Origin: Caecitellus pseudoparvulus
Lineage: Eukaryota > Protista > Bigyra: Bicosoecida
NCBI GenBank assembly: GCA_965644315.1
Contig: CBFFRQ010000121.1
Span: 1-41,049 of the forward strand
DNA length: 41,049 nt
Reading direction: 5' to 3'
A program made the position numbers and the translations under genes. The notes under the pieces were generated by a model, which worked only from the letters and a program-made list of their open reading frames with translations, was not told the DNA's origin and ran no database searches. Shown here in pieces: positions 1 to 26,975 of the stretch (position 1 is its first letter; each line of letters opens with the position of its first letter).

Positions 1-2214
1 GCCGGAGCGCGTGGGCGGTTGGCAATTGCAAATGCTCTGCTGTGGCAAGCTGGAATCGGCGTCATCGTGTTCGTTGATGAAGCGGAGTGCCTCTTTCAGC
101 AGAGCAAATTCGACTCCGCAGTCGCGGATCGATGGCGCGAGCAACTGTATGGGATCCTGAGCTTGAAGAAGAGCGCCATTGGCATGGTGATCTGTGCAAG
201 CTTTCAACGCGCCCGACAGCTGTTCCTGTCCGACGGATCAGCCCATGACTTCCCGTCTGACTACGCGCATTTGTCACTGCGGGCGGACTGGAACGGGAGC
301 AAGTTCAAGCAAGTTCGTTTGGGGGGGGTGAAATGGACACGATCGTCTCTGATGAACTTCCTGCTCACGCACACATGCAGGGTGGTGGACCCTTCATTCA
401 CTCTGTACCGAGAGGAAGAAGAGACGCAGACTCCTGGTGCAGCGGTGGGCGCAGCACAGGAGGCATCAAGTGCAATGGCGAAGGAGGACAAGCAGCCTTC
501 AGAAGCAGCGCTGGAAATGGCGAGGAAGCTTGACGCACTGTTCCTGCAGCGCTGGAAGGGAGAAGATGACCTGAGCGAAGAGGAGAAGCTCGACATGTCC
601 CTGGAGCAGGTCCTGGAGATGTACGGGCACACACCCCGGGACCTGGCGCGTGCTGCAACGGAGCACTTGTGTTCATGGATGCCACCTCGCCCTTGGCCAA
701 TCCCCTCTGAGTCTCGACGCCTGTCTGGCAGCAAGCTTCCAAGCGCCGCACTCAACCTGGTGATGACCTCATTCCTGGCGCTCTTGCCAGAAGACGTGAG
801 GGCAGGGCTGCCGAAAGCCACCATGCTCGGCTTTCGCTCCGCTGAGTACACTGTCCAGGAAGAGCAGCTGGAGACGCACCTGATGGAGCTTCCCCAGGAG
901 ACCCTCGTGGCAGCAGCAGGCGATGGCATGGCGCAGGGGGCAGCTACAACCACACCAACCGCCACACGACTTGTGGACAACGCTGTCGACAAGGGCTGGC
1001 TTGTGGAGCACGAAGACTGCCTGGGCCTGGGCAGCCTGGGGGTGTACCGCAAGTATGGGCGTGGAGGGGTGCACGCTGACGTCATGGTGTGGATACGGTA
1101 CAACGGGTACGGACAGGAGGCCGAGCTGCCCATTACCCGTGCCCTGGCGAGGATGCCAGACCAAGGCGGGCATGTCCTTGTGACAGTCGACAGTGTCGTT
1201 GACAAGGCCCGAGTGGGAGCCGCAAAGGCCACGGAGCGAGACGTGAAGGCAAGGAAGCAAGCAGCGAAAGCAGGGAAGCAAGCCGTGAAGGCCAGCAACA
1301 GCGACACCGAGGGCGGGCAGCTGGCGGGGGTGCGCATGGAGGTCGTGACAGGCCGCACAGCAGACCTGCCTGCACAAGCGGCTGCACCAGGGGAGAGTGT
1401 TGGGGCACCACACGCCGCAGCGGGAGCTGGTGGAGCAGGCGGTGGGGGCCAGGCAGTCGGGGCTGAGGCAGATTGGCGTGCGCGTGCACGGGCTGCGTAC
1501 GAGGCGCTTAAGCAGGTTCATGAGAGTCTGTGGGAGTATTTGGCTCTCCTCAAGGGTTCATTCTGGATGAAGGAGCTCCCAGATGTCTACGGTGGCGACG
1601 TGATCCGGGTGTCCTTTGAAGAGAAGGACGGCGTGACGACTGTGTGGATCATGCGTGTGCAGGTGAAGCGAGCCAACCAGAAGACGCTGAAGAACGGAGA
1701 TGTGAACGATGCAGGAGTTGCTGCAGTGCGGAAGGCAGTGGAAGGCTTGATGGATGTGAAGCCGTACGGGAGAGCGAAGCGGGAGGACATCAGGCGGAAG
1801 CACAAGCCCGCTGTGCGTGCTGTGGGTGACTTGATTGCTGCCGCTCTAATGTTGTACAAGGACAAAATGTCAAAACCTGTGGAAATGTCCGAGTGGGCGG
1901 AAGACTTTGAAGGGTACTGGCAGCTAGGCAGCCTCCGCATTGAGGATGGCGGCGCCATGATCGCATTGACGCACACAGTCCCAGACGGCATGCGAGAACA
2001 TGTGGAGGGGCAGCTGGGCATCCGCATCGTGGACGGGACCAACCTGCGAGGGCACTGGGGTCCCTTGGGGCTTGCAAGCAAGGGGGAAGGACTGTACTTG
2101 GAGACTGCCGGCGCCAATCCGGAAGAGGCAGCGGGCTCTGGAAGACCACTCACGGTACAAGAACGCGCTACCGAGTATCTTCGAAAGAGAAGGGCATTGA
2201 GACGCAAACAATAG
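1..2214 (+). CDS. STAND-like P-loop NTPase fused to Mrr-like PD-(D/E)xK nuclease (Crinkler/CR-type NTPase+REase), copy 1, 5'-partial
   Basis: Open from base 1 (AGARGRLAIANALL aligns with AGKRGRLDMASALL of copy 2). Walker B VIVFVDEAE, sensor-like strand GMVICASF, YGHTPRDL, VDKGWLVE. Nuclease motifs GQEAELPITRAL, PDVYGGDVIRV, IMRVQVKR, GIRIVDGTNL. Confidence 0.75.
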   Translation, partial: AGARGRLAIANALLWQAGIGVIVFVDEAECLFQQSKFDSAVADRWREQLYGILSLKKSAIGMVICASFQRARQLFLSDGSAHDFPSDYAHLSLRADWNGSKFKQVRLGGVKWTRSSLMNFLLTHTCRVVDPSFTLYREEEETQTPGAAVGAAQEASSAMAKEDKQPSEAALEMARKLDALFLQRWKGEDDLSEEEKLDMSLEQVLEMYGHTPRDLARAATEHLCSWMPPRPWPIPSESRRLSGSKLPSAALNLVMTSFLALLPEDVRAGLPKATMLGFRSAEYTVQEEQLETHLMELPQETLVAAAGDGMAQGAATTTPTATRLVDNAVDKGWLVEHEDCLGLGSLGVYRKYGRGGVHADVMVWIRYNGYGQEAELPITRALARMPDQGGHVLVTVDSVVDKARVGAAKATERDVKARKQAAKAGKQAVKASNSDTEGGQLAGVRMEVVTGRTADLPAQAAAPGESVGAPHAAAGAGGAGGGGQAVGAEADWRARARAAYEALKQVHESLWEYLALLKGSFWMKELPDVYGGDVIRVSFEEKDGVTTVWIMRVQVKRANQKTLKNGDVNDAGVAAVRKAVEGLMDVKPYGRAKREDIRRKHKPAVRAVGDLIAAALMLYKDKMSKPVEMSEWAEDFEGYWQLGSLRIEDGGAMIALTHTVPDGMREHVEGQLGIRIVDGTNLRGHWGPLGLASKGEGLYLETAGANPEEAAGSGRPLTVQERATEYLRKRRALRRKQ

Positions 2215-2366
2215 GACAGCCCATTGAATGCAGTGCCATGCCATATGCCTGGCCGCTCAGCCTTGAGGGTTGCGTGGCGTGCATGGGCTTTACAGATTGC
2301 CTGCCTTGTCTTGCTTCTCTGCGACACGAAGTTTAAGCCAACACGGCAAGTGCACAAGGCTTCCGA

Positions 2367-4054
2367 GTGCAAGTCGCGGTGAGCAAGGCAGGCGGCGGGC
2401 TCCTGCAGCTGTCCTCCCCCACTGTGGGCCTCGTGCACACCCACCCACTGTCTGGCACACTGGCCCTACTCCCAGATGCGGAAGCATGCAGCACCACAAC
2501 CGCCGCCTCCGTGCCAGCTGCCGCGCTGCAGCAAGCTCTACCGTGGACCTGCACTTTCCGCATGCCTGCTCTCGCCGCGAGCGCCTGTACGCCCCGCACG
2601 CTGCAGGCCTCGGCTCTGCCTGCTGGCAGCGCAGCCCACATCGCAGCTGGCCAGCTTGCAGAGGCGATGGCGCAGGCTGGCAGTGATCTGCCGTTCATCG
2701 TGCCCATGAGCCACGTGGAGCTGTCCCTGGCGACCTGGGCGAATGCTGGTGCCGGCCTCAGCTCCCTCACACTCACAGTGGGTGCCACGGCTCTGGGGTC
2801 TCAAGCCATGCCACACATGCGGGAAGTGGGCAGCTGGTACGCCGTGCGATCCAGCGCCTCGTGGGCCGACTTTGATCAGGTGGCAGGCGGCCGCCTGGCT
2901 CAAGTGACTCTGAACTCCAGCGCACTGGAGGACGGCGACACGCTGTGACTCACAGCTGTCGCCACGAACTTCGCAGGCCTGTCCACGGCAGTCATTGCAC
3001 CTCTGGGCGTGCTGGATGTGACGCCACCTGCCTTGATACCACGCATCGTCATGCCACGAGGCGGCCACGCACTGCTGCTAGCTCCCGGCTCCTCACAGGC
3101 GGAGGCTGCCGCAACCGCCTGCGCCGTGCAGACCATGCCTGATCTGGAGGCAGCATCCTTCATGACTGTGGAGTCTGTGCAGGCCGGGCTGGTGCTGCAT
3201 GTGGAAGGCCTGGGAGATACACAGTCAGGACTGGCCAGCGCCACCCTGTCCGTGCTTGTTGTGCCTGGCCAGTGGAACGGCTCCTCCCCGGTGCAGCTGA
3301 GCGCAGACCTGCTCCGCAATGGCCCCGACCTTGTGGACGAGTCCTGCACACTGTCTGCCATATCTCAAGCGTCAAGCAAGGCAGTTGACTCGGGTGCCGT
3401 GCTCGCCTTGCAGGGTGGCATGTGCTCCTGCACACCCAGCGCCACATCCCACCTTCTGAGCGCACCCGCAACGCTTGCCTTGGCCCCCAGCCCCTAGTGC
3501 GCTCACACTCGCCGTGCCGCCTGTGCCATGGGGACATGCCGACCGCCTCTTCCCTGTCGCCCAGGTGACCCATGGTGCGGGGTCGCAGCAGCTCGTGCTG
3601 GGGCAGCCCATGTTGGGTGGACGGCACGGTGCCAGCCTGGAGCGACGAAGTGGAAGTGCGTGATGGTGGCGACGTGGACGCGGACTGCATCCTGGGTAGT
3701 TCTGGTGCAGTGTTCCAAGCCTCATTGACCCCAGCAGCTGATGCAGAGTCGGGCATCGTGCAGTACGAGTGGTGCGTTGGCAGCACTGGCTCCGGCGCCG
3801 GGCGGGACGACCTCATGCCTTGCAGGCTTGTGGGCGACTCCCTCGAGGCCAGTGTGCTGGTGACTGGGCCAAATCAAGCTGACGATGGCTTCACGTGGCC
3901 GGCTGGTGGCTCGCTCTTCGTGAGTGTGCGCGGGCCCAGAACGGAGCTGGGACGTGGGGCGCCTGGATCACGTCGGGTGGCGCCTGAGCCCTGTCTGATG
4001 CAGCCGCGGACGTCTCCTGCGTGGCGGAGGCTGTTCGTGGGGTGCTGTGTGTAG
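2367..4054 (+). pseudogene. Decayed fragment of a large fibronectin-III/Ig-like beta-sandwich repeat protein (unit 1)
   Basis: FN3-type strands L*LTAVATNFAGLST, DAESGIVQYEWCVGS, LFVSVR. In-frame TGA at 2946-2948 plus frameshifting insertions relative to unit 2 near 3494, 3617 and 3930. Confidence 0.6.
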
Positions 4055-5250
4055 CTTTGTAGCTGCTGTGCAGGTAGCGTACCTTCCAAATGCAGCTTTC
4101 TGTCTCCCATGCGGTAGTCGTGCTGCACGCTCGCTGCGCGACCCGGTCTGACCCCATTGCAGCAGATCGGTGTCTTGACCGGGCAGGCGGAGCTCTGGGG
4201 CGTCCCCACACTACTACACACAACGTGTAGCTGAGCTGCGGCAAAGTGCCTTGTCACCTTCATGTTGAGGTTGGACGTGGGCGAGGGCGCACATGCAGCG
4301 TCTGTGACAGCGCACACCATTCCGGCACTTGAGCAGGGTTTGTCGCTGATCGCAAGTTCTCAGGGGCCTGTGGCACAGTGCCACTCGGTAGTGGACATGC
4401 AAGTATCTCGAACTGCACGTGGGGACACCGCCTCGCGTTGAAGGCGAGTCCTACCGAGCTCGTGATTGCAAGCGTGACCAATTTGCTCATGATGATGCAC
4501 GAGACTTCGGGCTTCGGCTGGGGGCCACAGAGAGTCGTACAGGGCGGTGGGGAATGTACAAGCTCCAATCCACTCGTAAGCAACCATCAACAGTAGGTGA
4601 GCATGGCCAAGGGAGGGCTCCTCTTGCTCAGGCGCCTCGCCATGCGCTCGACAGGAAGCATGTGCGAGCTGGCGTTGAAGCCAGACCCGGCGGTGGAGTG
4701 ACGCAGGTGGGCAATGTTGAGACCTAGGAGCATGGACTGCCGAGAGCACATGCGCCTGGGAGGTAGAGGGGTACAACATGCGTGAGCGCTCACCCTGGAT
4801 CGGTGTGCACGTCTGAAGGGGGCTTGACACCCCCTCCCTAAGCGCAGCAGCATTCTCGCTGCCAACGGCATTCTCTGCACAACGCCAAACTCCCCATCAC
4901 GACCATCCCTTCTTCCAAACTCGGCCCACTGCACTTCACGTGCAGCACATTGTGGTTTTCGGGGGTTGTTTGCACTTGCTTGCGCCTGGCTGGGCGCGGT
5001 TGGTGCTGGCGTTGTGAAGTGTGTGGCAGCTCAATTTCCGCACTGCATCATTTTGCAAGCAGCGTAGGCGTCGAGTTCGAAGCGGCACGCCCCCACTGTA
5101 CAGTAGAGGTGACTGATAAACACCAAGAACAAGTAGTGAGTGCACGTTTGTGACGTGAAGTGGCGTCCATTGCGAGATCTCATGGCTGCTGCTGCGGCCG
5201 CGTTGCCAGCCCTTGCGCCGGTAGAACCCGCCTTGCATGATCTCGCAGGC

Positions 5251-8067
5251 ATGGCGGCAGCAGAAGTACCCCCGGAAGTCGGAGCTTGTGAACACGAGAT
5301 GGGGCCATTTGAGAAGCTGTGCATGTCTGGTTTGTCCTTTGGTTACCCAGGCCACCTGTCTGAGGAAGCTGTAGAGCTTTGGAAGAAGATGGTGCTCAAC
5401 CAGGAGCTGACCTTTCTGCCCATGACACACCTCTTCCGAGCCTTTCGTGTCCTGGCAACCATGCTGAAGGGCACGCATGAGCATGAAGAGGCGCAGGCAT
5501 GCTTGATCTCTGGTCCAAAGGGCGTCGGGAAGTCCCGCCTTTTCGAAGCGATTGCCGAGGCAATGGACGAGGAGAACAGGAAAGGAGCGGACGGCAGGCT
5601 CACCATTTGCTTCCGTATCGACCTCCAACGACACAGCTCCACAGACGACGAATCCTTCCACGAGTGCCTCTTCAAGGCCATTATCTACGAGCTTGATCTC
5701 TTGAATAGACACGCGGAAGTAGCAGAGGTGCTCAGCAATCTCGCCACCCATGCTGCAGGCTCGAAGAATGAAAACGTGGAGAAAGGGGATCTTCAAGATA
5801 TCTTCACCCTGCGTGGCGACCCTGAGGCTCTGTCACCCAAACTGCGGGCAGACTTGTCAGTTGCCGGAAAGCGTGGCCGGTTGGACATGGCAAGCGCTCT
5901 GCTGAGGCAAGCTGGCATCGCGGTCCTCGTGATCGTTGATGAAGCAGAACACCTCTTCCAGGGACTCAAGTTCGACTCCAACCTCGCCAAACGATGGCAT
6001 CGGCAACTGCAGGAGATCCTTGGAGTGGTCAATCCTACCATTGGCATGGTGATCTGTGCGAGCTTTCAGCGCTCCCGACAGCTGTTCCTGTCCGACGGAT
6101 CAGCCCATGACTTCCCACCCGAGTACACACATGCGTCACTGCGAGCGAACTGGAACGGGACGAAATTCCAACACTTGCGCATTGGAGGTGCCATGTGGGC
6201 GGAGGACTCCCTCAAGGCTTTCCTGCTCACGCACGCGTGCAAGACGGTTGACCCTTCATTCACTCTGTACCGAGAGGAAGCAGAGACGCAAACTGCTGGT
6301 GCAGCTGTGGACGCAGCACAGGAGCCGTCGGGTGCAGCGGTGAAGGAGAGGCAGCCCTCAGAAGCAGCGCTGGAAATGGCGAGGAAGCTTGACGCGATGT
6401 TTCTGGAGCGCTTGGGGGAAGATGAGCTTCGTGACGAGGAGAAGCTCCAGTCCTCCCTGGAACGTGCCCTGGAGCTGTACGGGCACACACCCCGGGAACT
6501 GATGCGTGCTGCAAGAAAGTGTCTGCCTGTGTGGATTCCAGGTGTGCCCTGGCCAGACCGCCCTGTGCCTCAACGACATTCTGACAGCAACCCACCCAGC
6601 ACATTATTCCAGCAGGTGATCGACTCATTTCTGGCGAGCTTGCCTGCTGCCGTGAGGGCAAAGCTGCCGAGAGCCACGATGCTTGGTTTTCGCTCCTCGC
6701 AATACGTCGTACCAAGGGACGAGTTCACAAGAAAACTCGCAGGGCTTCCTGAGCAGCCAGCCGCAGCGGCAGCAGGCGACGGCACAGCGCGAGCAGATGC
6801 CGCCACCAAGGCCGCTACGAGACTGATTGACGACGCCATCGACAAAGGTTGGCTTGTCGAACACGGGAAAGGCCTGGGACTCGCCAGCCTTGAAGTGTAC
6901 CGCAGGTTTGGGCGTGGAGGTGTGCACGGTGACGTCATGGTGTGGATGCGACATGACGGATACGGAGAGAGGGCCGAGCTGCCCATTACTCGTGCCCTGG
7001 CGAGGATGCCAGACCAAGATGGAGATGTCCTCGTGGAGGACGAAGGTGGAGAAGAAGAGAGCAGCGAAGGCAAAGCAAATCCCCCCAAGCAAGCCGTGAA
7101 GGCAAGGAAGCAAACGGCGAAAGCAGGGAAGCAAGCCGTGAAGGCCAGCAACAGCGACACCGAGGGCGGGCAGCTGGCGGGGGTGCGCATGGAGGTCGTG
7201 ACAGGCCGCACAGCAGACCCGCCTGCACAAGCGGCTGCACCAGCGGAGAGTGTTGGGGCACCACACGCCGCAGCGGGAGCTGGTGGAGCAGGCGGTGGGG
7301 GCCAGGCAGTCGGGGCTGAGGCAGATTGGCGTGCGCGTGCACGGGCTGCGTACGAGGCGCTTAAGCAGGTTCATGAGAGTCTGTGGGAGTATTTGGCTCT
7401 CCTCAAGGGTTCATTCTGGATGAACGAGCTCCCAGATGTCTACGGTGGCGGCGTGATTCGGGTGTCCTACGAAGTGAAGGACGGCGTGACGACTGTGTGG
7501 ATCATGCGTGTGCAGGTGAAGCGAGCCAACCAGAAGACGCTGGAGAACGGAGATGTGAACGATGCAGGAGTTGCTGCAGTGCGGAAGGCAGTGGAAGGCT
7601 TGATGGATGTGAAGCCGTACGGGAGAGCGAAGCGGGAGGACATCAGGCGGAAGCACAAGCCCGCTGTGCGTGCTGTGGGTGACTTGATTGCTGCCGCTCT
7701 AATGTTGTACAAGGACAAAATGTCAAAACCTGTGGAAATGTCCGAGTGGGCGGAAGACTTTGAAGGGTACTGGCAGCTAGGCAGCCTCCGCGTTGAGGAT
7801 GGCGGCGCCATGATCGCATTGACGCACACAGTCCCAGACGGCATGCGAGAACATGTGGAGGGGCAGCTGGGCATCCGCATCGTGGACGGGACCAACCTGC
7901 GAGGGCACTGGGGTCCCTTGGGGCTTGCAAGCAAGGGGGAAGGACTGTACTTGGAGACTGCCGGCGCCAATCCGGAAGAGGCAGCGGGCTCTGGAAGACC
8001 ACTCACGGTACAAGAACGCGCTACCGAGTATCTTCGAAAGAGAAGGGCATTGAGACGCAAACAATAG
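5251..8067 (+). CDS. STAND-like P-loop NTPase fused to Mrr-like PD-(D/E)xK nuclease, copy 2 (ORF open from 5140)
   Basis: Walker A GPKGVGKS (5512-5535), Walker B VLVIVDEAE, YGHTPREL, IDKGWLVE, PDVYGGGVIRV...VQVKR...IRIVDGTNL. Start placed at the MAAAEVP ATG conserved with copy 3. Confidence 0.8.
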   Translation: MAAAEVPPEVGACEHEMGPFEKLCMSGLSFGYPGHLSEEAVELWKKMVLNQELTFLPMTHLFRAFRVLATMLKGTHEHEEAQACLISGPKGVGKSRLFEAIAEAMDEENRKGADGRLTICFRIDLQRHSSTDDESFHECLFKAIIYELDLLNRHAEVAEVLSNLATHAAGSKNENVEKGDLQDIFTLRGDPEALSPKLRADLSVAGKRGRLDMASALLRQAGIAVLVIVDEAEHLFQGLKFDSNLAKRWHRQLQEILGVVNPTIGMVICASFQRSRQLFLSDGSAHDFPPEYTHASLRANWNGTKFQHLRIGGAMWAEDSLKAFLLTHACKTVDPSFTLYREEAETQTAGAAVDAAQEPSGAAVKERQPSEAALEMARKLDAMFLERLGEDELRDEEKLQSSLERALELYGHTPRELMRAARKCLPVWIPGVPWPDRPVPQRHSDSNPPSTLFQQVIDSFLASLPAAVRAKLPRATMLGFRSSQYVVPRDEFTRKLAGLPEQPAAAAAGDGTARADAATKAATRLIDDAIDKGWLVEHGKGLGLASLEVYRRFGRGGVHGDVMVWMRHDGYGERAELPITRALARMPDQDGDVLVEDEGGEEESSEGKANPPKQAVKARKQTAKAGKQAVKASNSDTEGGQLAGVRMEVVTGRTADPPAQAAAPAESVGAPHAAAGAGGAGGGGQAVGAEADWRARARAAYEALKQVHESLWEYLALLKGSFWMNELPDVYGGGVIRVSYEVKDGVTTVWIMRVQVKRANQKTLENGDVNDAGVAAVRKAVEGLMDVKPYGRAKREDIRRKHKPAVRAVGDLIAAALMLYKDKMSKPVEMSEWAEDFEGYWQLGSLRVEDGGAMIALTHTVPDGMREHVEGQLGIRIVDGTNLRGHWGPLGLASKGEGLYLETAGANPEEAAGSGRPLTVQERATEYLRKRRALRRKQ
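7087..7149 (+). repeat. In-frame 21-bp minisatellite (KQAVKAR/KQTAKAG/KQAVKAS); 3 units here, 3 degenerate units at 1234-1296, 1 unit at 12953-12973
   Basis: aagcaagccgtgaaggcaagg / aagcaaacggcgaaagcaggg / aagcaagccgtgaaggccagc. Confidence 0.8.
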
Positions 8068-8219
8068 GACAGCCCATTGAATGCAGTGCCATGCCATATG
8101 CCTGGCCGCTCAGCCTTGAGGGTTGCGTGGCGTGCATGGGCTTTACAGATTGCCTGCCTTGTCTTGCTTCTCTGCGACACGAAGTTTAAGCCAACACGGC
8201 AAGTGCACAAGGCTTCCGA

Positions 8220-9911
8220 GTGCAAGTCGCGGTGAGCAAGGCAGGCGGCGGGCTCCTGCAGCTGTCCTCCCCCACTGTGGGCCTCGTGCACACCCACCCA
8301 CTGTCTGGCACACTGGCCCTACTCCCAGATGCGGAAGCATGCAGCACCACAACCGCCGCCTCCGTGCCAGCTGCCGCGCTGCAGCAAGCTCTACCGTGGA
8401 CCTGCACTTTCCGCATGCCTGCTCTCGCCGCGAGCGCCTGTACGCCCCGCACGCTGCAGGCCTCGGCTCTGCCTGCTGGAAGCGCGGCCCACATCGCAGC
8501 TGGCCAGCTTGCAGAGGCGATGGCGCAGGCTGGCAGTGATCTGCCGTTCATCGTGCCCATGAGCCACGTGGAGCTGTCCCTGGCGACCTGGGCGAATGCT
8601 GGTGCCGGCCTCAGCTCCCTCACACTCACAGTGGGTGCCACGGCTCTGGGGTCTCAAGCCATGCCACACATGCGGGAAGTGGGCAGCTGGTACGCCGTGC
8701 GATCCAGCGCCTCGTGGGCCGACTTTGATCAGGTGGCAGGCGGCCGCCTGGCTCAAGTGACTCTGAACTCCAGCGCACTGGAGGACGGCGACACGCTGTG
8801 ACTCACAGCTGTCGCCACGAACTTCGCAGGCCTGTCCACGGCAGTCATTGCACCTCTGGGCGTGCTGGATGTGACGCCACCTGCCTTGATACCACGCATC
8901 GTCATGCCACGAGGCGGCCACGCACTGCTGCTAGCTCCCGGCTCCTCACAGGCGGAGGCTGCCGCAACCGCCTGCGCGGTGCAGACCATGCCTGATCTGA
9001 AGCCTGCGTCCTTCACGACTGTGGAGTCTGTGCCAGCCATGTTGGTGCTGCATGCGGAAGGCCTGGGAGATACACAGTCAACATTGGCCAGTGCCACCCT
9101 GTCCGTGCTTGTTGTGCCTGGCCAGTGGAACGGCTCCTCCCCGGTGCAGCCGAGCTCGGACCTGCTGCGCAATGGCCCTGGCCTTGTGGACGAGTCCTGT
9201 GTGCTGCCTGTGGTATCCCAAGCGTCAAGCATGGCAGTTGACTCGGGCGCCGTGCTCGCCTTGCAGGGTGGCCTGTGCTCCTGCACACCTAGCGCCACAT
9301 CCCACCTTCTGAGCGCACCCGCAACGCTTGCCTTGGCCCCCAGCCCTAACGCGCTCACACTCGCCGTACCGCCTGCGCCATGGGGCCATGCCGACCGCCT
9401 CTTCCCTGTTGCCCAGGTGGCCCATGGTGCGGGGTCGCAGCAGCTCGTGCTGGGGCAGCCCGTGTTGCTGGACGGCACGGCGCCGGCCTGGAGCGACGAA
9501 GTGGAAGTGCGTGATGGTGGCGACGTGGACGCAGACTGCATCCTGGCCAGTCCTGGTGCAGTGTTCCAAGCCTCATTGACCCCAGCAGCTGATGCAGAGT
9601 CGGGCATCGTGCAGTACGAGTGGTGCGTTGGCAGCACCGGCTCCGACGCCGGGCGGGATGACCTCATGCCTTGCAGGCTCGTGGGCGACTCCCTCGAAGC
9701 CAGTGCGCTGGTGACTGGGCCAGATCAAGATGGCGATGGCTTCACCTGGCCGTCTGGCGGCACGCTCTTCGTGAGTGTGCGGGCCCAGAATGGAGCGGGG
9801 ACATGGGGCGCCTGGATCACGTCGGATGGCGCCCGAGCCCTGTCTGATGCAGCACAGGACGCCTCCTGTGTCGTGGAGGATGTCCGCGGGGTGCTGTGCG
9901 TAGCTTTGTAG
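8220..9911 (+). pseudogene. Fragment of a fibronectin-III/Ig-like repeat protein interrupted by one in-frame TGA (unit 2)
   Basis: ORFs 8220-8801 and 8862-9911 are in the same frame, separated by TGA 8799-8801 inside GDTL*LTAVATNFAGLST. Downstream motifs DAESGIVQYEWCVGS...LFVSVRAQNGAG..WITSDG are typical of FN3-like repeats. Confidence 0.65.
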
Positions 9912-11104
9912 CTGCTGTGCAGGTGGTTTACCTTCGAAATGCAGCTTTCTGTCTCCCATGCGGTAGTCGTGCTGCACGCTCGCTGCGCGACCCGGTCTGA
10001 CCCCATTGCAGCAGATCGGTGTCTTGACCGGGCAGGCGGAGATGTGGGGAGTCCTCACACAGCTGGGTTGCCTGTGCTGCAACATCAAATCCTAGTGACT
10101 GCTCAGCTTCGTCATGCACTTGGGTTGGGCGCACAGGCAATGGCCGTGTTGTGCAACACCCCGGCATTTGAGCAGGGCTCGCGCTGATCGCAAGCTGTCT
10201 GGGGCCTGTGGCGCCACGCTGCTCGGGGATGAATGGCTCCATCTCTCCATTTGCTAGTGGTGACACTGCCTGACGCTGGAGGTGAGTCTTGCCCAGCCAG
10301 TGATTGCAAACGTGACCAATTTGCTCATGACGATGCACGAGACTTCGGGCTTCGGCTGGGGGCCACAGAGAGTCGTACAGGGCGGTGGGGAGTCTGCCAG
10401 CACCAAGCAGCTGACATGCAATCGTCAACAATATGTGAGCATGCCCAACGACGGACTACCTTTGCTCGGGCGCCCCGCCATGACCTCGAGGAGGAGCAGC
10501 CGGCAGTGGTCATTAAAACCGCACCGAACCGCACCTGGCTGTGGAGTGGCGCAGGTAGGCAATGTTCAGACCTAGGAGCATGGACCGCCGAGGGCACATG
10601 CGCCTGGGACGCAGAGGGCTACACCATATGTGAACGCTCACCTTGTGCTGTGCCGTGGTGTGGTGGAGGGGGGCTTCACACCCATTGCGCTCAGCGCAGC
10701 ACCGGCATTCTCGCTGCCAACGGCATTCACTGTGCCACACCAAACTCCCCATCACGCCCATTGCCACCTTCGCACTCGGCCCATCATACTTCATGTGTGG
10801 TACATCATCGTTTGTGGTGGTTGCTTGCACCTGGCGTGTGCCTGACTGGGCGCGGTTGGCGCTGGCGTTGCGAAGTATGTTGCTGCTAAGCTTCCGCACT
10901 GCACCATTTGCAAGCGGCGTGGGCGTCGAGTTCGAAGCCGCACGTCCCCCCTGTACAGTAGGGGTGACTAAGCAGTACAAACAACTAGCAGTGAGTGCAC
11001 GTTTGCGACACGTGGTGCCGTCAATTGCGAGATCTCGTGGCTGACTCTGCGTCCACGTTGTCAGCCCTTGCGCCGGTATAGCACGCCTTGCGTTGCTCGC
11101 AGGC

Positions 11105-13897
11105 ATGGCAGCAGCAGAAGTACCCACGGAGGTTGGAGTCAGTGAGCGTGAGATGGGGCCGTTCGAGAAGCTGTGCAGGTCTGGATTGCGCGTGAGCCGC
11201 CCAGCAAGGGTACCCAAGGTTTATGGTAGCTTGTGGAAGATGATGGTGCTGGACCATGACAGCGCATTTCTCCCCATAGGCCACTTGGTTGAAGCGTACA
11301 CAGTTCTAGCATCGATGGCAGGTATCTTGCACAGGTCAGCACCATCACCGGTGACCTTCTTGCTGACTGGCCCGAAAGGCATCGGGAAGTCCCACCTGTT
11401 TCGCAAGTTTGCCAAGCACGTCGCTGATGTCAGCAGGAGAGCAGCGGATGGGAGGCTCACCATCTGCTGCCGGGCCGACCTCAGAAAGCGCAGTTCCACA
11501 TGCCCAAAGAATTTCCATGAGTGGCTGTTTCATGCCATTGCCGAAGAACTCGAAGATCTGCATCGGCACCCAGAAGTGGTGCAAGTGCTCCGCAACTTCG
11601 CCGCCCACGCTGCAGGTTCGATAGACGAGGAAGTGAGCAAGGAACAGCTTTCTGTCATCTTCACCTTGCGTGACGGCACCAAGGCTCAGCGACCCCAGTT
11701 GCATAGAGAAATGTCGAGTGCCAGTGAGCTTGACCGACTGGACATTGCAAGCGCTTTGCTGAAGCAAGCTGGCATCGCGGTCATTGCAGTCGTTGATGAA
11801 GCGGAGTACCTGTTCCAGGAACGCAAGTTCGACTTCGCAACCACAAGACGATGGCAAAGTCAAATGGAGGGTGTTCTCAGCCTGGTCGAGCCCGCCATTG
11901 GCATGGTGGTCTGTGCGAGCTTCCAGCGTGCACGACAGCTGCTCCTGTCCGACGGATCACCCCATGACTTTCCCCCAGAGTACACACATGTGTCACTGCG
12001 AGGAAACTGGAACGAGACCAAGCTTAAAAGCAAGCGCCTGAGGGGTGCCACGTGGACGGAGACGTCCCTCAAGGCTTTCCTGCTCACACACGCCTGTCAG
12101 TCGGTGGACCCTTCGTTTGCACTGTACAGGGGGGAAGCAGACAAGCAGCAGCCTAGTGCGGCGGTGGACGCAGCACAGGAGCCGTCGGGTGCAGCAGCGA
12201 AGGAGAAGATGCAGCCGTCAGAAGCAGCGCTGGAAATGGCGAGGAAGCTTGACGCGCTGTTCCTGCGGCGCTTGGAGAGGGAAGGGGACATGAGCGAAGA
12301 GGAGAAGCTCAAGTCCTCCCTGGAATGTGCCCTGGAGCTGTACGGGCACACACCTCGGAACTTGGCGCATGCTGCATCTACGCTTTTCCTAGAATGGGAA
12401 CCATCCACTCCATGGCCAGAACCCACGAGCCCCGTGTTCACAGAGGACCTGTGCGAGGCAAGCGAAGACCACGAGCAGGTGATGCGCTCAGTCCTCGCGC
12501 TCTTGCCGGATGCCAAAAGAGCAAAGCTGCCGGGAGCCACGGCGCTTGGATTCCGATCCTCACATTTCGTCGTACCAAGAGGCAAGCTCACGAGAAAGCT
12601 GAAGGAGTCCCCCGAGCAGCCGCCCGCGGCAGCAGCAGGCGACGTCACAGTACAGGGGACAGCTACAACTACTCCAGCCGCCACAAGACTCATTGACAGT
12701 GCCATCGACAAAGGCTGGCTTGTGGAGCATCGCGGCTGCCTGGGCCTAGGCAGCCTGGGGGTGTACCGCAGGTATGGGCGCGGAAGAGTGCACAAGGACG
12801 TCATGATGTGGATGCGACATGACGGATACGGAGAGAGGGCCGAGCTGCCCATTACCCGTGCCCTGGCGAGGATGCCAGACCAAGATGGAGATGTCCTCGT
12901 GACGGACGAAGGTGGAGAAGAAGAGGACAGTGAAGGTGTAGCGGAGTCCCAGAAGCAAGCCGTGAAAGCCAGCAACAGCGACACCGAGGGCGGGCAGCTG
13001 GCGGGGGTGCGCATGGAGGTCGTGGCAGGCCGCACAGCAGACCTGCCAGCACAAGCGGCTGCACCAGCGGAGAGTGTTGGGCCACCACACGCCGCAGCGG
13101 GAGCTGGTGGAGCAGGTGGTGGGGGCCAGGCAGCCGAGGCTGAGGCAGATTGGCGTGCGCGTGCACGAGCTGCGTACGAGGCTCTTGAGCAGGTTCATGA
13201 GAGTTTCAAAGAGTACTTGGCTCTCCGCAGGGGTGCATTCTGGATGAAGGAGCTCCCAGATGTCTACGGTGGCGGCGTGATTCGGGTGTCCTACGAAGTG
13301 AAGGACGGCGTGACGACTGTGTGGATCATGCGTGTGCAGGTGAAGCGAGCCAACCAGAAGACACTGGAGAACGGAGATGTGAACGATGCAGGAGTTGCTG
13401 CAGTGCGGAAGGCAGTGGAAGGCTTGATGGATGTGGAGTCCTACAGCGAAGCGAAGCGGGCGCACATCGAGGGGAAGCACATGCTCGTGGTGCGTGCTGT
13501 GGGTGACTTGATTGCTGCCGCGAGATTGCTGTGCAACCAACCCAAACTAAAGCCTGGGAGCATGTTCGCCTGGGAGGAAGAATTCGCAGGGTATTTGCAG
13601 CAAGGCAGCCTCCGCATTGAGGATGGCGGCGCCATGATTGCCTTGACGCACACAGTACCAGACGGCATGCGAGAACATGTGGAGGGGCAGCTGGGCATCC
13701 GCATCGTGGACGGGACCAACCTGCGGGGGTACTGGGATATCCTGCAGAAAGCAAGCAAGCGGGAAGGGGTGTACTTGGAGAATGCCGGCGCCAAAGCAGT
13801 TGAGGCAGCGGGCTCTACTGGATCGCGCACGGGCCAAGACGTGCTTGACGCGCTCTACAAAAAGTACATGGCATGGAGTGCAAGATCTGGGGAATGA
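11105..13897 (+). CDS. STAND-like P-loop NTPase fused to Mrr-like PD-(D/E)xK nuclease, copy 3 (ORF open from 11093)
   Basis: Walker A GPKGIGKS (11369-11392), Walker B VIAVVDEAE, YGHTPRNL, IDKGWLVE, PDVYGGGVIRV...VQVKR...IRIVDGTNL. C-terminal tail diverges from copies 1 and 2. Confidence 0.8.
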   Translation: MAAAEVPTEVGVSEREMGPFEKLCRSGLRVSRPARVPKVYGSLWKMMVLDHDSAFLPIGHLVEAYTVLASMAGILHRSAPSPVTFLLTGPKGIGKSHLFRKFAKHVADVSRRAADGRLTICCRADLRKRSSTCPKNFHEWLFHAIAEELEDLHRHPEVVQVLRNFAAHAAGSIDEEVSKEQLSVIFTLRDGTKAQRPQLHREMSSASELDRLDIASALLKQAGIAVIAVVDEAEYLFQERKFDFATTRRWQSQMEGVLSLVEPAIGMVVCASFQRARQLLLSDGSPHDFPPEYTHVSLRGNWNETKLKSKRLRGATWTETSLKAFLLTHACQSVDPSFALYRGEADKQQPSAAVDAAQEPSGAAAKEKMQPSEAALEMARKLDALFLRRLEREGDMSEEEKLKSSLECALELYGHTPRNLAHAASTLFLEWEPSTPWPEPTSPVFTEDLCEASEDHEQVMRSVLALLPDAKRAKLPGATALGFRSSHFVVPRGKLTRKLKESPEQPPAAAAGDVTVQGTATTTPAATRLIDSAIDKGWLVEHRGCLGLGSLGVYRRYGRGRVHKDVMMWMRHDGYGERAELPITRALARMPDQDGDVLVTDEGGEEEDSEGVAESQKQAVKASNSDTEGGQLAGVRMEVVAGRTADLPAQAAAPAESVGPPHAAAGAGGAGGGGQAAEAEADWRARARAAYEALEQVHESFKEYLALRRGAFWMKELPDVYGGGVIRVSYEVKDGVTTVWIMRVQVKRANQKTLENGDVNDAGVAAVRKAVEGLMDVESYSEAKRAHIEGKHMLVVRAVGDLIAAARLLCNQPKLKPGSMFAWEEEFAGYLQQGSLRIEDGGAMIALTHTVPDGMREHVEGQLGIRIVDGTNLRGYWDILQKASKREGVYLENAGAKAVEAAGSTGSRTGQDVLDALYKKYMAWSARSGE

Positions 13898-13923
13898 GAC
13901 AACCAATGCAGTGCTGTGCCATA

Positions 13924-16700
13924 CACATAAACAATGAATCTTGATGCTTCCAACCGGTCATGTACCATTTTGACTTCCACTGTCACCATTCGATCCGACC
14001 CCGTAAATGTGAGGTCGGGACCTGGAGCTAAGAACGCCAGGCCTCTTACGTTTCCTGGCTTTCTAGGCAACTGTCAGAGCTTTTAGGTGTGCCCGGCATC
14101 ATTCATGAAACGACATGTCAAAGTTTCAAGAAAAACTGTGAACTCTGTGCCCAAAGTTTGAGGGCCCCTCAAAAAATTGAGGGTTGCTCGAACTGATGAG
14201 GTCATGATCTGGACAGGCGGAACTGTCCCCTTTGCCCAACAGGGACGAGACTTCGGAATGAAACATCTGGAATCAAAGCGTTTGACATTACTTTCTATCC
14301 CACTTTAGAATCCTTCCAAACACTGCCGTTCACAAGAATTCCAGACGTCCCTACACGGAAAATGTATGACATCTTTCACTATGCTCCTCAAACCTTTCCA
14401 AACAACCACCGATTCAAAGCAAATGGCAAGCTTCATGCTTGAACGCGACAAGGCGAGGCACGCAGTACCCCCAGCACATTCATTAAACAGTGTCGCACTG
14501 CCTGCAGACAAACAAGAGCTTTTCTTTACCTTGACTTTCAAATGATTGCCAATTGCAAAGAACCAAGGAGATTTGCGTTCTATATTGACAAATTATCCCG
14601 CCGCCGCATTCACTTCTTGAACTGAAAGAGAAATACTTCTGCAAGGAAGCATTTTCTCTTCATGAGATAATGCGCTTTACTATATTTCTGTTCATTTGAT
14701 TACACCTTTCTCCTGCCGAGTGATAGAAAACAGACAAACAAAAATTCTCTCATTCTTAACAGATGGAATCACCAATCCAGTAACTTCATTCTCTCAGTGG
14801 AAATTCCGTATCTGGATTCCAATTTTGCTAAACATGGGAATGCGTGGATTTTCTCTTTCAAAGTATGTATAAGAATGTCCAGACTGCACTTACGTGCCTT
14901 ACAAGGCCTCCAGCTGGTCAAAGTTGGCAGTAAAGTAGACGTACATACTTTTTTTGACAGTAAGTTGCAAGATATAAGCTTTCTGTGTAGCTTGGGCGGG
15001 CTCGCCCTTGTCTTCTTCCTGTCGCGCTCGAATCCACTCGTTTGTGGTTGCTCAGGACGGCAGGTGCATTCCACGCTCCCATTGAGAGCGCTAAATGGCT
15101 CTGAGATCCGCCAACAGGCCCAGTACAAGTCCATGGGTGACATGCTTCAATCAAACTTGAGTGCATCGCTTCACGACTAACATTTCGTATCCAGGGGCTG
15201 TTTTCATGTCTGGGCCCTTGAAAATAGTACTTACAGTTTCTGCCACACTGGCCACAAGCTTCATCAGCTTTGCATTCCTTTCTGTGCGGTTTCCCATGCG
15301 AGCAGGACTAACCATCCAGTGCTCCCTAGGCTAAAGCACAGGCTTCAAGTACTGATTATTGTTGTATGATGTCACTGTTCTCTCGTGTCATGGAGACTTT
15401 GTGTGGTGCATTTGTCACGATTTTGGAGCGACCGAACGGATCGCCACACTTTCCAAGCGATTCGCCGCTGGTAAATGCAATTATGTAAACTCTTGAATGA
15501 ATAATATAAACAAGGCACTATTGGGCGCATGTACTTTGTAGTATCCGGTTTTGCGGAGTTACGCCCGAGTGAATGCCCAAGATAGCACCCTGTCAACTGC
15601 CTAGAGTGCACAAGTGCGTTGAGAACCGGACATTCTGTCTCCCTGATACGGTATGCTCTGTTCGATTAGAAGTCACGTTTAATTAGATGCAACTTCATAG
15701 GTCTTATGTTGGTGTACCGGGACAACGTAACTCTGAGCTGGTGCGTTGAATTCCAAATTGTCATAGTACCAATGCCGATCGAGCCTCATTGAATGTCAAA
15801 TCTACAGACACAGTAGCCTGTTCACTCTGCTAGTTCTGAATTGCGCTGTATTGGTTTCTCCGAGCGTCGCAACTTTCCATGGAGAGCAGTTGAGTCTCTT
15901 GCACAGTACTTTTCACCGCTGACAGATTTGTCTGGGAATGATGCTGTTGCACAGTACTTCCTAAATGCAGTATGATGCTTTTGAGCACGCCCATGGCAAG
16001 CATTCTGGATTACTATGGATTCCTCTTGCTCTATTGATGCAAGGGAAGCAATATTGACATCGCTGCCAGAAAAATGGCAATGATTCGGACATGTGTGAGC
16101 TACGCGAAGGAACTGTGCAGTCACGACGAACGAATGGTTGCAACGAAGCGGATCTGCATAGGAGATGCTTCTTCCAACGGCGCTAATTTTATTCAAGCAA
16201 GCCTGCGGTTCTCCGCAGCTTCATTTTTTCTATTTTTTTGGAGTTTAGTGAAGTGAGAAGATCTCGAGTTCAATGCTGATTCTCTCATTGTTTTCCGACA
16301 GTCCCTGGTCGCACCTGAGAGCGATTTGCTTTGTCTTCAGTTTAGAATTTGTTGCTGTGTATTGATTTTAATTGAAGGCCATCCCTTGAGTTCAGTGGTA
16401 TGCGGGTTCTGGTCTTTGGGAATGGTTTTCATATGTTCAATTTGTCGGGTCATGCGCTGTGCTTCAGTGCCTGCTGCAAGAGGTTTTGTAAGATGGGGAT
16501 GGGCATCGTTTTTTTGTGTTTGTATGTTCGTTTGCAGGGTACGTCCGTCTTCGTTGAAGGTGTGCAGTGTGTGCTCTGCGCCAGAGCTGCCAGTTGTCAC
16601 GCCTGGGCGATCCAGTTGGCAAATCCATGCTGCAGGCAAACTTGGCAACTGCGTCAGATCTCCCTCGGACCATGACATTCATTGGGTGGTGACTGTCGTG
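13924..16700. other. Lower-GC island without an intact gene; possible decayed mobile or viral insertion
   Basis: Hand counts of 60-nt lines: 20/60 GC at 14641, 19/60 at 15481, 35/60 at 15001, versus 38/60 at 17941. Only short ORFs. Begins exactly where array homology stops. Right boundary approximate. Confidence 0.55.
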
Positions 16701-16868
16701 CGGAGTGCGGCTCGCTGTCTTGGCATTGCCTCTCGGTGTTTGCAGGCATTGCCGTTTCAGTGCAAAGTCCGCAGTTGCCACTGGCGCGGCTATTTCGCGG
16801 GCATCCGCGTGGGCTTCATCTGAGGCAAGCGCTTCGGAGAACGTACTCGTGCTTAAGCTCTGTGTGCC

Positions 16869-18683
16869 ATGTCTGCGACATCCTCTTCTGCTGCGGGCGG
16901 AATCGTGCTGGAGGAGGCCAAGCCGCTGCGGGAATCCATCTTGTGGCGGCTGCAGAGCGCCTTCTACAATGATGTCAGCATCGAAGCGTGGTCAAAGGCA
17001 ATCGTGCCGAACTTCGTGTCTTCCAACAGCTTTCTGGCCAAGTGCTATGCCCGCATGATCCTTGCTTACGCTCGTGACTGGTTCCTTGGGTAGGTGAAGC
17101 GTGGCGTGGTGCGTGGTGGCCCGTGCACTGCACAGGCTGCGTCTGCAATTGTTTGCAGGAATGGCGCTGCCGACCCGTCACAACCTGTGTATGTGTTGGA
17201 AGTTGGCGCTGGGCATGGCAAGTTGACGCACCTGCTGCTGTACCACTTGAACGACATGCGTGAGGCATGGCCGCCAGGGGTAGAGGTGCCGTTCCAGATC
17301 ATCATGACAGATTTCACGCAGAACAACGTGGATTTTTGGCTGAAGCACGAGCCGTTGAAAGCTCACGTGGAAAGTGGTTTGTTGGACATGGCTGTGTTTG
17401 ACGCAGTGTACGACTGCAGCCTGCGCCTGGTGCACGGGAAGAAGACGCTGAACCCGACAAACCTCGCCAACCCCGTCATCGCCATCACGAACTACATCTT
17501 CGACACGCTGCCCCACGATGCGTTTCAAGTGCGGGGCGGGGCTTTGCACCAGGCCAGCGTCCGCACCAGCACCGCCAGTGCTTCCGAGGAGGCTCAGCGC
17601 AAGGTGCAGCAGGTGCTGGGCAAGGCGGCTGCAGAGGGCCGCCCAGTGCCAGGCACGGCTGTGCCAGTGGAGGCAGGGATGATCAAGCGCCTGGGGTGTG
17701 AGTGGTCGTACCAGGAGGTGGACGTGGAGACCCTGCCTGAGCCGTACGCAGGTGACCCCGCCCTGGCTAGTGTGCTGCAGTGGTACCAAGGTGAAGTGGA
17801 GGAGGCCAGTGTGCTGGTGCCAATCGGCGGCCTGGCCCTGCTGCGCAATCTCCTGACCTTGTCCAAGGGGCGCTGCATGCTGCTGCTGGGGGACAAGGCG
17901 TACAGCAAGCTGAGCGAGCTGGAGGGTGTGCGGGATCCACACATCGCCCTGCACGGCTCCTTCAGCCTCATGGTGAACCTGCACGCGGTGGACCTGTACG
18001 CGCAGGCCAAGGGGGGCTTCTCCCTCATGACGCCGTACATTGACGGCTTCAAGTGCGCCGCCGTGGTGTTCGGGGAGTCACCGGAAGGCCTCGTGGAGAC
18101 TCGCCTGGCGTGGGAAGACGTCATGGTGGACTTCGGGCCAGAGAACTTCTCCTGCGTGCAGCGGTGCATCAAGGACGAAACGGCCAGCCCGTCCTTGGCC
18201 ACGGCTCTGGCTGTGATCCGCGCGGCGCAGTGGGACAGCGACGTCTTCTACAAGTTCAAGGCCACCATCCTCGCCAACAGCAGCAGCAGCAGCGTGCCCG
18301 ACAAGCTCAAGAGTGACCTGTACGAAGATGTGAAGCGCATCTCGGCAACGTACTATCCCCTGCAGAGCTCCAAGGACATTTCGTTTGAGCTGTCACGCGT
18401 GCTGATGGGGCTGGGGCGGTACGCTGAAGCTGTGGAGGGTTTCCAGCGCAGCATGGCGCAGTGCGGGGAGCACCATGTGACGTGGTACAACATCGCCCTG
18501 TGCCAGTTCCACATGGGGGCGTTCCCAGCGGCGAAGGAGCTGTTCACCAAGTCCCTGAAACAGTCGGGAGGGCGCTACGAGAACGCGAAGCTGTGGCTGG
18601 ACAAGACTGAGGAGAAGCTTGCTGCATTGGAGGGGGGGAAAGCCGAGGTGGCGCCAGAGGGTGGTGAGGCCGCAGCGGAATGA
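16869..18683 (+). CDS. SAM-dependent methyltransferase (MidA/NDUFAF7-like) with C-terminal TPR repeats; intron 17090-17158
   Basis: Motif I VLEVGAGHGKL, MidA-like NYIFDTLPHD, TPR-like YAEAVEGFQRS and TWYNIALCQFHMG. A 69-nt GT-AG intron joins the 16869 exon in frame (WFLG-NGAADP). Confidence 0.75.
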
Positions 18684-18821
18684 GTGCCGCAATTCAACAC
18701 TGACACAAAGGCACACCGCCCTGCAGGCCACTGCCACTGGGTGGAGCGTGGGCTGTTCAGGGGGAGTGCAGGCAGCTGGAGCTTGCAGCGGAAATTGGTC
18801 ACATTGGGGCGTGTGCAAGCG

Positions 18822-19944
18822 ATGGCGTCTGCTTCGGCAGCCAAGCGGTCTGAGGCTGGAGACGCTTCCATCCTCGCCCGCTACAAGCACGACTTGCTGG
18901 CAGCTGTGGAAGATGATGTGGGTCCCGGCACTTGCCCCGTGTCGGCGAGGGTGTGCGCGGATCACCCGCTGGTGGCTTTCCTGCTTTGCCCCAGGTTTCA
19001 AGCCGCATCGTGGACATCCTCACGGCCCTGCTGGACGAGACGTTTAATCTCAAAGCCATTGCAGTGTGTATGTGCGCTGCGTACGAGTGTGCGTGGTCCT
19101 GTGACTTGGGCCGCCCTATCTCGCCACTGCGCAGGCCAGCAAGGTGGGGCACTCCCTCAGCAAGCTGCGCAAGCATGCCGATGCAGGTGTGGCAAAGGCG
19201 GCCAAGGCAGTGGTGAAGAAGTGGAAGGCTCAGCAGGAGGCGGCGATCAAGGCTGCCAGCGTAAGCCCCACTCCGAGTGCCGCAGAGGCTGCCGCTGCGG
19301 TCGTACCAACATCTCCCCCGGCAGAGCCATTTGAAGACGAGGCAGGGCTGCCGAGGAACCGACTGGCGGTGCGTAAGGCGCTGGGCAAGAAGGTGTTGGC
19401 TGCCTGCGAGAGTGAGCAGGGGCTGGCGCTGCAGCGAGAGCTGCGGCCTGGGCGGGAGCCGCTGACAGGGCAGCAGCTGCAGTGGAAGGTGGCGGGGCGC
19501 ATGGCTGAGGTGGAGCGGGCCCTGCACAAGCTGCAGGGGTGCATTGATCCACAGCGCCCGTCAGCTGAGTATTCGGAACAGTTCCGCCGCCTGCACTTCA
19601 ACTTCGGCGACAACGTGCCGTTGGCTGTGAAGGCGGGCTTGGGGCTGGCAGACGCGGCGTGGCTGGCGACCGCCTCCAAGGAAGACGTGGCGTCCGAGAC
19701 CATCAAGAAGCAGACTGATGCCGTTCTGACAGCAGGCAAGGAGGCGGTGCAGCTGGACTGGGCGGCCAAGAACAAGACGAAGCAGATGGAGGCTGCCGGC
19801 ATGCAGGTGCACAAGGGCACCTTCCAGTGCAAGGTGTGCAAGTCCTGGAACACCACATACACACAGAAACAGACACGGTCGGCAGACGAACCCATGACAA
19901 CCTTCGTCTTGTGTGTGGACTGCGACAACCGGTGGAAGATGTGA
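18822..19944 (+). CDS. TFIIS: Transcription elongation factor TFIIS; introns 18918-18994 and 19064-19134
   Basis: C-terminal zinc ribbon CKVC...[19 protein letters not shown]-terminal domain [12 protein letters not shown]...AKAVVKKWK. Splicing restores a continuous frame from MASASAAK. Confidence 0.93.
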
Positions 19945-20145
19945 CCAATGCAGTGGCCACTTCAGCGGGCCAGCGCAAGCCAGCGCCTGGGGGCCGCAAA
20001 TGCACCCGTGAGCCTGAGCGTTACATTTCCCCACGACTCACACAACCCCAACACCTCACACGGCACCCCGGCTCGCCCCTGCCCCTTTCCCCTGCATGTG
20101 CACCTGCACTGCCAGCACCAGCACCTCCCGGCACACGTAGCAGTC

Positions 20146-26941: not shown

Positions 26942-26975
26942 GCGCCCCCCTGCGCAATGCATTGGCCGACACGCC

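Follow-up and report, generated by a model that had tools for sequence, protein, structure and literature searches.

The fusion of a nucleoside triphosphatase (NTPase) with a restriction endonuclease (REase) is an established architecture of the CR (Crinkler-RHS) proteins, where it makes up slightly over a quarter of the C-termini (PMC5289972). CR proteins are present in free-living eukaryotes, CRN copies are arranged tail-to-head, and most Phytophthora CRN C-termini have the order NTPase, helix-turn-helix (HTH) and REase. It has been proposed that the CR-type combination arose against invasive intracellular DNA, and NTPase-REase modules are also linked to transposons (PMC5289972). The architecture scheme is repeated in PMC11064341 and PMC6131194, the beetle Medea1 killer carries NTPase and REase (PMC11342252), and growth is inhibited on activation of a bacterial NACHT protein whose effector is predicted to be Mrr-like (10.1101/2022.07.19.500537). 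The subject of this work is an array of three paralogous genes in a stretch of 41,049 nucleotides (the window) from contig CBFFRQ010000121.1 of the protist Caecitellus pseudoparvulus (assembly GCA_965644315.1). Each gene encodes a STAND-like P-loop NTPase followed by a winged helix and an Mrr-like nuclease, both of them predicted.

The array resembles the CR proteins in being eukaryotic, in the order NTPase, HTH and REase, in its head-to-tail copies, in recombination between these copies and in the role in conflict that can be proposed for it. In contrast to the CR proteins, the array family has no recognizable header or LFLAK motif and no match to the Crinkler or RHSP models of Pfam; its nuclease motif is the Mrr-type QxK, and no sequence link to a named CR protein appears among the matches. 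The C-terminal NTPase-HTH-REase architecture is shared, but CR membership is not shown thereby, the LFLAK header being absent; the comparison is with the CR scheme of Zhang et al. 2016 as given in PMC5289972, PMC11064341, PMC11342252 and PMC6131194.

Prokaryotic STAND ATPases of the MNS type (ATPase_2; 2QEN) with a C-terminal REase share with the array protein the P-loop, the GxP helical domain, the winged helix and the lack of a repeat sensor. Unlike them, the array protein is about twice as long, contains long inserts, is encoded on a eukaryotic chromosome, stays below every Pfam cut-off and has no prokaryotic relative in pattern scans, which are insensitive. The C-terminal REase of these MNS-type ATPases is of the DUF234 or the Mrr-like kind. 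AF1548, MspJI, AspBHI and the LlaBIII nuclease domain, nucleases of the Mrr superfamily, agree with the array protein in the predicted fold, in the order E...D...QxK and in a C-terminal hhhTH...GhhhhDG..L. The array protein differs from them in having no visible SRA or methyl-reader domain and no match to the Mrr_cat model of Pfam, and in an insert of about 150 residues and a helical insert after QxK. Bacterial NLR-like defence proteins offer a further comparison. In bNACHT25, with its Mrr-like REase, and in Avs3 and Avs4 a STAND switch is likewise joined to a nuclease effector; the bacterial effectors are N-terminal and a sensor is usually C-terminal, whereas in the array protein the nuclease is C-terminal, no repeat sensor is found, and PADLOC returns weak P-loop matches only. 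Tribolium Medea1 (CR-NTPase8 and CR-REase7) also combines NTPase and REase in one eukaryotic gene; its CR-REase7 has a histidine three residues past the active-site glutamate (PMC11342252), whereas in the array family QxK is followed by x-A-[T/N/S]-Q.

By analogy, the array protein would work like the CR C-terminal module and the prokaryotic ATPase-REase fusions, an architecture that is itself already known. We tentatively favour, at a little under an even chance, the reading that the P-loop NTPase, predicted winged helix and predicted Mrr-like nuclease form an intracellular ATP-gated DNA cutter against invading DNA, in which glycine-bearing copies would be non-cutting partners or decoys.

Three paralogous genes in tandem

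Three paralogous, intronless and stop-free open reading frames (ORFs) lie on the forward strand within bases 1-13,897 of the window (1-2214, 5182-8067 and 11105-13897), in agreement with the initial annotation of this DNA. The tandem arrangement described there is also found; what is repeated, head-to-tail and with a period of about 5.85 kb, is however more than a gene, since each unit also includes a spacer of about 3 kb in which part of an unrelated gene is decaying. Copy B is 77% identical to copy A and 67% to copy C.

Copy A (1..2214, forward strand; 737 residues) is 5′-open at the window edge. It begins 25 codons before Walker B (nt 76) and continues through GxP (nt 622), the winged helix and an Mrr-like nuclease with complete E/D/QxK to a basic C-terminal tail. 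Copy B is full length (5251..8067, forward strand), with 938 residues counted from ATG 5251 inside a stop-free frame of 961 residues (5182-8067, forward strand); Walker A stands at nt 5512, Walker B at nt 5938 and GxP at nt 6478, and they are followed by the winged helix and by a nuclease domain with glycine at the predicted catalytic aspartate (nt 7450). Copy C (11105..13897, forward strand; 930 residues), full length and last in the array, has Walker A at nt 11369, Walker B at nt 11795, GxP at nt 12341, glycine at the predicted catalytic aspartate (nt 13274), and a helical insert and tail of its own. The motifs attributed to all three genes are present, except that Walker A is visible only in copies B and C and lies off the window in copy A. 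Copies A and B terminate in a basic run resembling a nuclear localization signal.

For copy B, the sequence makes 5251 the most likely start rather than 5182, because the same MAAAE opens copy C and the homologues P0001, P0006 and P0007, and because a one-base deletion at 5182-5183 is found in sequencing runs X1 and X4.

The NTPase half

An exhaustive HMMER search with a five-row profile against 1.84 billion representatives gave 43 proteins at E<=0.001, 41 of them at 1e-10. These members, 19-93% identical to copy B, provide the rows in which conservation was counted. Judged by motifs and models, the N-terminal half fits a STAND-like P-loop NTPase. It contains a Walker A of the form GxxGxGK[S/T], a Walker B hhhhD[D/E], sensor-1 with GxP, and a winged helix after the helical domain; sensor-1 together with GxP is a hallmark of STAND proteins. 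The Walker A lysine is kept in 30 of the 31 rows that have the residue and the Walker B aspartate in 28 of 33. After strand 4, at the polar sensor-1 position, S294 is found in 29/34 rows and R297 in 31/34, and in the G-x-x-P-R of the helical domain (GxP motif) G434 is kept in 30/32 and P437 in 24/32.

Pfam matches of the kind foreseen in the initial annotation were obtained (AAA_16 at E 6e-6, ATPase_2 at 3.5e-4, and in addition AAA_22 at 1.5e-5), though all lie below the cut-off; AAA_16 matches 29 of the 43 family rows at E<=0.1. Top matches in the ESM Atlas (0.95-0.96) are bacterial and archaeal clusters of AAA_22, ATPase_2 and nSTAND1. With a poor full-length model (predicted local distance difference test, pLDDT, 40), Foldseek ranks ORC5 first and the Pyrococcus/archaeal ATPase 2QEN second, while in VIA-align ORC4, TnsC and ClpX tie at Z 10.6. 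These sub-threshold Pfam matches and this tie, the latter from a pLDDT-40 model, would fit either a named STAND clade or AAA+ proteins of the ORC/Cdc6/TnsC type. TniB matches weakly in Pfam (E 0.003), and NCBIfam and PADLOC give weak P-loop matches only.

Ahead of the NTPase lies a short conserved GPFE.LC segment, without a Pfam match and modelled at pLDDT <50. Copies B and C have no header, no LFLAK and no hydrophobic or signal-like N-terminus, and their NTPase core begins within about 50 residues; CR headers may be short helical domains, which are beyond the reach of the header tests used. The claim that a LFLAK/HVLV header is missing holds for LFLAK in all three copies, while an HVLV string does occur in copy A, within the C-terminal half and not as a header. 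These observations bear on the view that the proteins are exported Crinkler-like toxins aimed at prey, competitors or a host. Such a role would agree with the layout shared with most Phytophthora CRN C-termini (PMC5289972) and with the basic, NLS-like ends of copies A and B, but the missing ubiquitin-like header and LFLAK, the lack of any Crinkler or RHSP Pfam match for copies B and C at E<=1 and the short stretch without a signal ahead of the NTPase core speak against it, and we hold export to be highly doubtful. Action inside the cell, as in the reading favoured here, fits the proteins because header, LFLAK and hydrophobic N-terminus are lacking in copies B and C.

The predicted winged helix and nuclease

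From modelling and sequence, the C-terminal half is predicted to be a winged helix joined to a restriction-endonuclease-like PD-(D/E)xK nuclease of Mrr-like type. The model covers copy A residues 255-714, was built from a 35-row alignment and has a pLDDT of 83 and a predicted template modelling score of 0.79. In it, the predicted winged helix occupies model residues 1-103 (763..1071, forward strand) and the predicted nuclease domain, with a low-confidence insert, corresponds to 1081..2061 (forward strand). It was compared by a Foldseek-free structure search with 48,161 chains, the best 50 rows being used. Thirty-four of them cover model residues 1-105 and are mostly winged-helix domains, including those of ORC1, Cdc6, the NB-ARC of ZAR1 and NRC1, and MukF (Z 4.5-6.2; 4.5-5.1 for ZAR1, NRC1, ORC1 and Cdc6). 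The other 16 cover residues 100-460, and 15 of these have the restriction-endonuclease fold, with AF1548 at the head (Z 6.8, root-mean-square deviation 2.7, 114 aligned) and LlaBIII, MspJI, AspBHI and FokI among the others. Twelve of the 15 were assigned by entry titles, and two are proteins otherwise known to have this fold. The assignment of AF1548 follows PMC1821046, which predicts it to be a restriction endonuclease.

The predicted catalytic residues are placed as follows: Glu121 (nt 1123) opens the first helix, Asp279 (nt 1597) precedes the second core strand, and Gln300-x-Lys302 (nt 1660-1668) lies within the third. Among rows with the residue, E is kept in 21/26, D in 27/32, Q in 25/31 and K in 25/31. 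An insert of about 150 residues divides the first helix from the strand of the Asp, and a further helical insert follows QxK. Because the neighbouring Glu and Asp (KExPD) are likewise conserved, Asp279 as a metal ligand is a positional assignment and not a proven one. The case for the nuclease fold, at moderate Z, is built on the agreement of the structural matches and the conservation of the catalytic motif. The Mrr_cat match expected for the C-terminus (PF04471) did not appear at E<=10 for the three window C-termini and ten homologues; weak leads in the ESM Atlas are DUF234 and Mrr_cat, at 0.81-0.83 (Mrr_cat 0.83). The combination of STAND-like NTPase, winged helix and Mrr-like PD-(D/E)xK proposed at the outset is supported by fold searches and family conservation, the predicted C-terminal fold being restriction-endonuclease-like.

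The aspartate/glycine position

The position before strand 2 of the nuclease is Asp in copy A and Gly in copies B and C and in the homologue P0008. The motif PDVYGG(D/G) had been correctly reported, but its D/G position is that of the predicted catalytic Asp, and the lack of this residue in two of the three copies had been overlooked. Copies B and C are predicted, by their motifs, to have an intact NTPase and a dead or weakened nuclease, whereas copy A and P0001 keep a complete nuclease site. Since copies B and C carry glycine and the Walker A of copy A lies off the window, no window copy is seen with both sites intact. An assembly artefact as the source of the two forms was rejected, as other assemblies carry Asp (P0001) and Gly (P0008).

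Exchange and selection within the array

The sequences indicate that the copies are gene-conversion mosaics under purifying selection. A homogenized tract (1300..3124), comprising the nuclease and the next 900 bases, differs from 7153-8977 at 12 of 1825 bases; upstream of it, 30-codon blocks of copies A and B show differences at 14-44% of their bases. Seven of the 12 mismatches cluster at 1572-1690 round the D/G site, and at six of the seven B agrees with C, so that a short tract seems to have carried the Gly form from one copy to another. The two catalytic blocks are 96-99% alike across the copies; for the helical insert and the tail of copy C the likeness is 61-66%. P0001 is a further mosaic. 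Site-pattern clustering scores 318, whereas 10,000 shuffles average 200 and reach 238 at most, in a test inflated by adjacent changes within a codon.

Between copies B and C, the ratio of non-synonymous to synonymous substitution rates (dN/dS, Nei-Gojobori) is 0.53 overall (bootstrap 0.44-0.63) and 0.47 in the NTPase (0.33-0.66), rough values owing to gene conversion. Over the gene it is below 1, and the neutral evolution that was to count against functional genes is not seen. The most divergent segments of the nuclease half reach 1.0 (residues 811-870; 0.55-2.33) and 1.24 (905-961; 0.74-2.34). Of the 138 inverted pairs in 1-17000, the 25 longest include no terminal inverted repeats that bound the unit, the left end of the array being off the window. 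Unequal crossover and gene conversion explain the array without transposition.

A former nuclease family whose present copies are largely non-nuclease or decaying, either ATP-dependent DNA-binding proteins or neutral duplicates kept open by conversion from an active copy, would account for part of these data. Both full-length window copies lack the predicted catalytic Asp, a dN/dS of about 0.5 is relaxed and may reflect past selection, the spacer fragment was duplicated while already decaying, and NTPase-only (P0006, P0007) and winged-helix-less (P0002) forms exist. Against this, the three ORFs have stayed open along 2.2-2.9 kb, in contrast to the spacer gene duplicated with them, in which stops and a frameshift are found; the catalytic residues are retained across a family with members 19-30% identical, and copy A and P0001 have the full nuclease site; on balance decay is unlikely as the main explanation.

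Occurrence of the family

Word-indexed protein searches, with yields of only 2-4 relatives, gave P0001 (89% identical; the one named match, under the label Symbiodinium sp. KB8), P0002 and another four proteins of lesser length. Twenty members that were looked up come from ENA, Logan, JGI, MGnify and NCBI sets, none with an informative name. In a FastTree tree of 33 rows without outgroup, the ten shortest of the 43 being left out, the window copies cluster with P0001, P0006 and P0007. P0006 (458 residues) and P0007 (460 residues), 54-56% identical to copy B, both stop short of the winged helix, at one shared point of the alignment; they may be NTPase-only forms or share a common stop. P0002 (702 residues) has no winged helix, altered Walker motifs and no D/QxK, and its frame is open in four records. 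P0029, at 5097-8138 of locus L001, is a distant single-copy homologue in which the Walker motifs are intact and the nuclease site is degenerate. At L001, the single homologous locus read, this one intronless copy stands amid differing eukaryote-like neighbours, one of them an acyltransferase, and its GC content (49-54%) is below theirs.

Pattern scans found no relative in IMG/VR or GTDB genomes, and being insensitive they do not show absence; a JGI metagenome scan with a close alignment, equally insensitive, found none although JGI holds distant members. A tblastn search against plasmids and phages gave no match. No description of the NTPase-nuclease family was found in the full-text literature searched, a scope that most subscription journals fall outside. 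The suggestion of an undescribed clade is therefore supported for a header-less, Mrr-type family without a Pfam model, as far as Pfam, NCBIfam, PADLOC and this literature reach and with CR clades known by description only; it does not extend to the NTPase-HTH-REase architecture, already known from CR proteins.

Array DNA was found in 20 of 23 listed sequencing runs. Eight hold half of its words or more, four of them marine metagenomes, and one of these, X3, covers all 30 bins; the run with the highest share may derive from the source sample, and the only run listed as RNA holds 0.06 of the words. Run X1 has a summed contig depth of 138-689 in 1-14 kb and of 63-89 in 14.2-17 kb, values that are not copy numbers and were not used as such. 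Diverged contig pieces in the runs, for example with 50 differences per 263 bases, are a sign of paralogues beyond those in the window.

Spacers and genomic surroundings

Spacer 1 (2215..5250, forward strand) and spacer 2 (8068..11104, forward strand) contain the upstream regions of copies B and C and the same decayed, unrelated gene fragment (2337-4060 and 8190-9911, forward strand), which has an in-frame stop near 2946 and a frameshift near 3499 in spacer 1, and in spacer 2 is open over 8802-9911 after a stop at 8799-8801. The fragment comes from a large beta-rich gene, has no Pfam match and carries a DAESGI..Y motif, as known from fibronectin-III-like repeats; its intact parent may lie left of the window.

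Directly past copy C, an AT-richer stretch of about 2.5 kb (14000-16600; 43-51% GC against 60-72%) has no ORF above 190 codons and no repeat elsewhere in the window, and Rfam has no match in 1-20000. The first gene past the array (16870-18683, forward strand) has weak Methyltransf_28 and TPR matches and a likely short intron near 17092. Housekeeping genes follow in 20575-40560 (CBS-domain protein, VPS9, PUF/CPL, SART-1, ANKRD13, Tam41 and a PTR2 transporter), with TPR genes also downstream, and because of these genes the window is taken to be eukaryotic. Being dense in genes and poor in introns, it does not resemble dinoflagellate DNA, despite the Symbiodinium label of P0001. An 824-codon open frame (32206-34680, forward strand) has no Pfam match above cut-off and a weak SelB winged-helix match (E 0.003).

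GC at third codon positions is 64-67% in the array genes and 73-89% in five neighbours. This, together with the lack of introns, would also agree with a selfish element, in which the NTPase-nuclease would be the enzyme of a mobile unit or a Medea-like toxin and the nuclease-dead copies remnants or antidotes. The joint best structural match to TnsC, the weak TniB match, the solitary L001 homologue with its different neighbours and lower GC, and the many degenerate family members point the same way, as do the link of NTPase-REase modules to transposons (PMC5289972) and the same architecture in Medea1 (PMC11342252). The unit, however, has no terminal inverted repeats in the pairs surveyed and no transposase or antidote gene; it includes 3 kb with a host gene fragment, as unequal crossover would give, and the dead-site copies retain their ORFs and NTPase motifs under purifying selection. 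A selfish element is possible but rather unlikely.

A candidate DNA-cutting mechanism

The intracellular DNA cutter favoured here draws on the observed ORFs and motifs, the conservation over 43 members, purifying selection and sequence exchange between the copies, together with three predicted folds and predicted catalytic residues. Its steps are modelled on STAND and CR proteins. The resting NTPase-nuclease protein would be autoinhibited. Foreign DNA recognized through the winged helix, or else a protein of foreign origin, would act as the trigger for nucleotide exchange and oligomerization, and the oligomer would gather the nuclease domains, so that DNA is cut and the invader destroyed or the cell killed. 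Copies B and C, with their glycine, would serve as partners that do not cut, or as decoys. Through unequal crossover and gene conversion the nuclease core would be kept uniform while the NTPase halves stay diverse. Immune-receptor clusters show a similar pattern of uniform and diverse parts.

Several observations weigh against this reading. The best nuclease Z of 6.8 is below 8, the caution line of the search tool. Foldseek with the C-terminal model gives no match at E<=0.001 in PDB or BFVD, despite the high ranks of MspJI and phage ‘restriction endonucleases’, and searches with sequence profiles return no nuclease from Pfam or PDB (nothing from PDB with the nuclease-only profile). No repeat sensor is seen, the Pfam searches and the model giving no match to a repeat family (LRR, TPR, WD40), as the initial annotation had noted, and the C-terminus is taken up by the nuclease. 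Of the 43 aligned rows, 19 cover the full set of seven diagnostic sites, and nine of these keep both NTPase and nuclease sites; eight keep the NTPase only (one of them, P0042, being truncated and misaligned), one the nuclease only and one neither, while P0002 and P0029 are degenerate. Birth-and-death decay in a family that is selfish or dispensable gives such a pattern of site loss as well. In the most divergent segments both intervals span 1, so that positive selection is not shown there.

In a bolder version the array would be an innate-immune locus of a protist, derived from a STAND-Mrr fusion of the prokaryotic type, in which diverse NTPase sensors with disarmed nucleases would assemble with an armed executor copy and destroy giant-virus or virophage DNA, conversion reshuffling sensors and cutters as in paired NLR clusters. 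Mavirus-like virophage genes in the KB8 assembly (PMC10120064) are a weak contextual hint. This version is very unlikely.

Significance for protist biology

Cell-autonomous antiviral proteins of free-living protists are, to our knowledge, barely characterized. A header-less NTPase-nuclease encoded by a single gene, with intact and disarmed natural variants adjacent to each other, lends itself to direct tests of DNase activity and virus restriction. It is also relevant to the proposal that Crinkler/RHS effectors were at first weapons used within the cell against foreign DNA and acquired export headers later.

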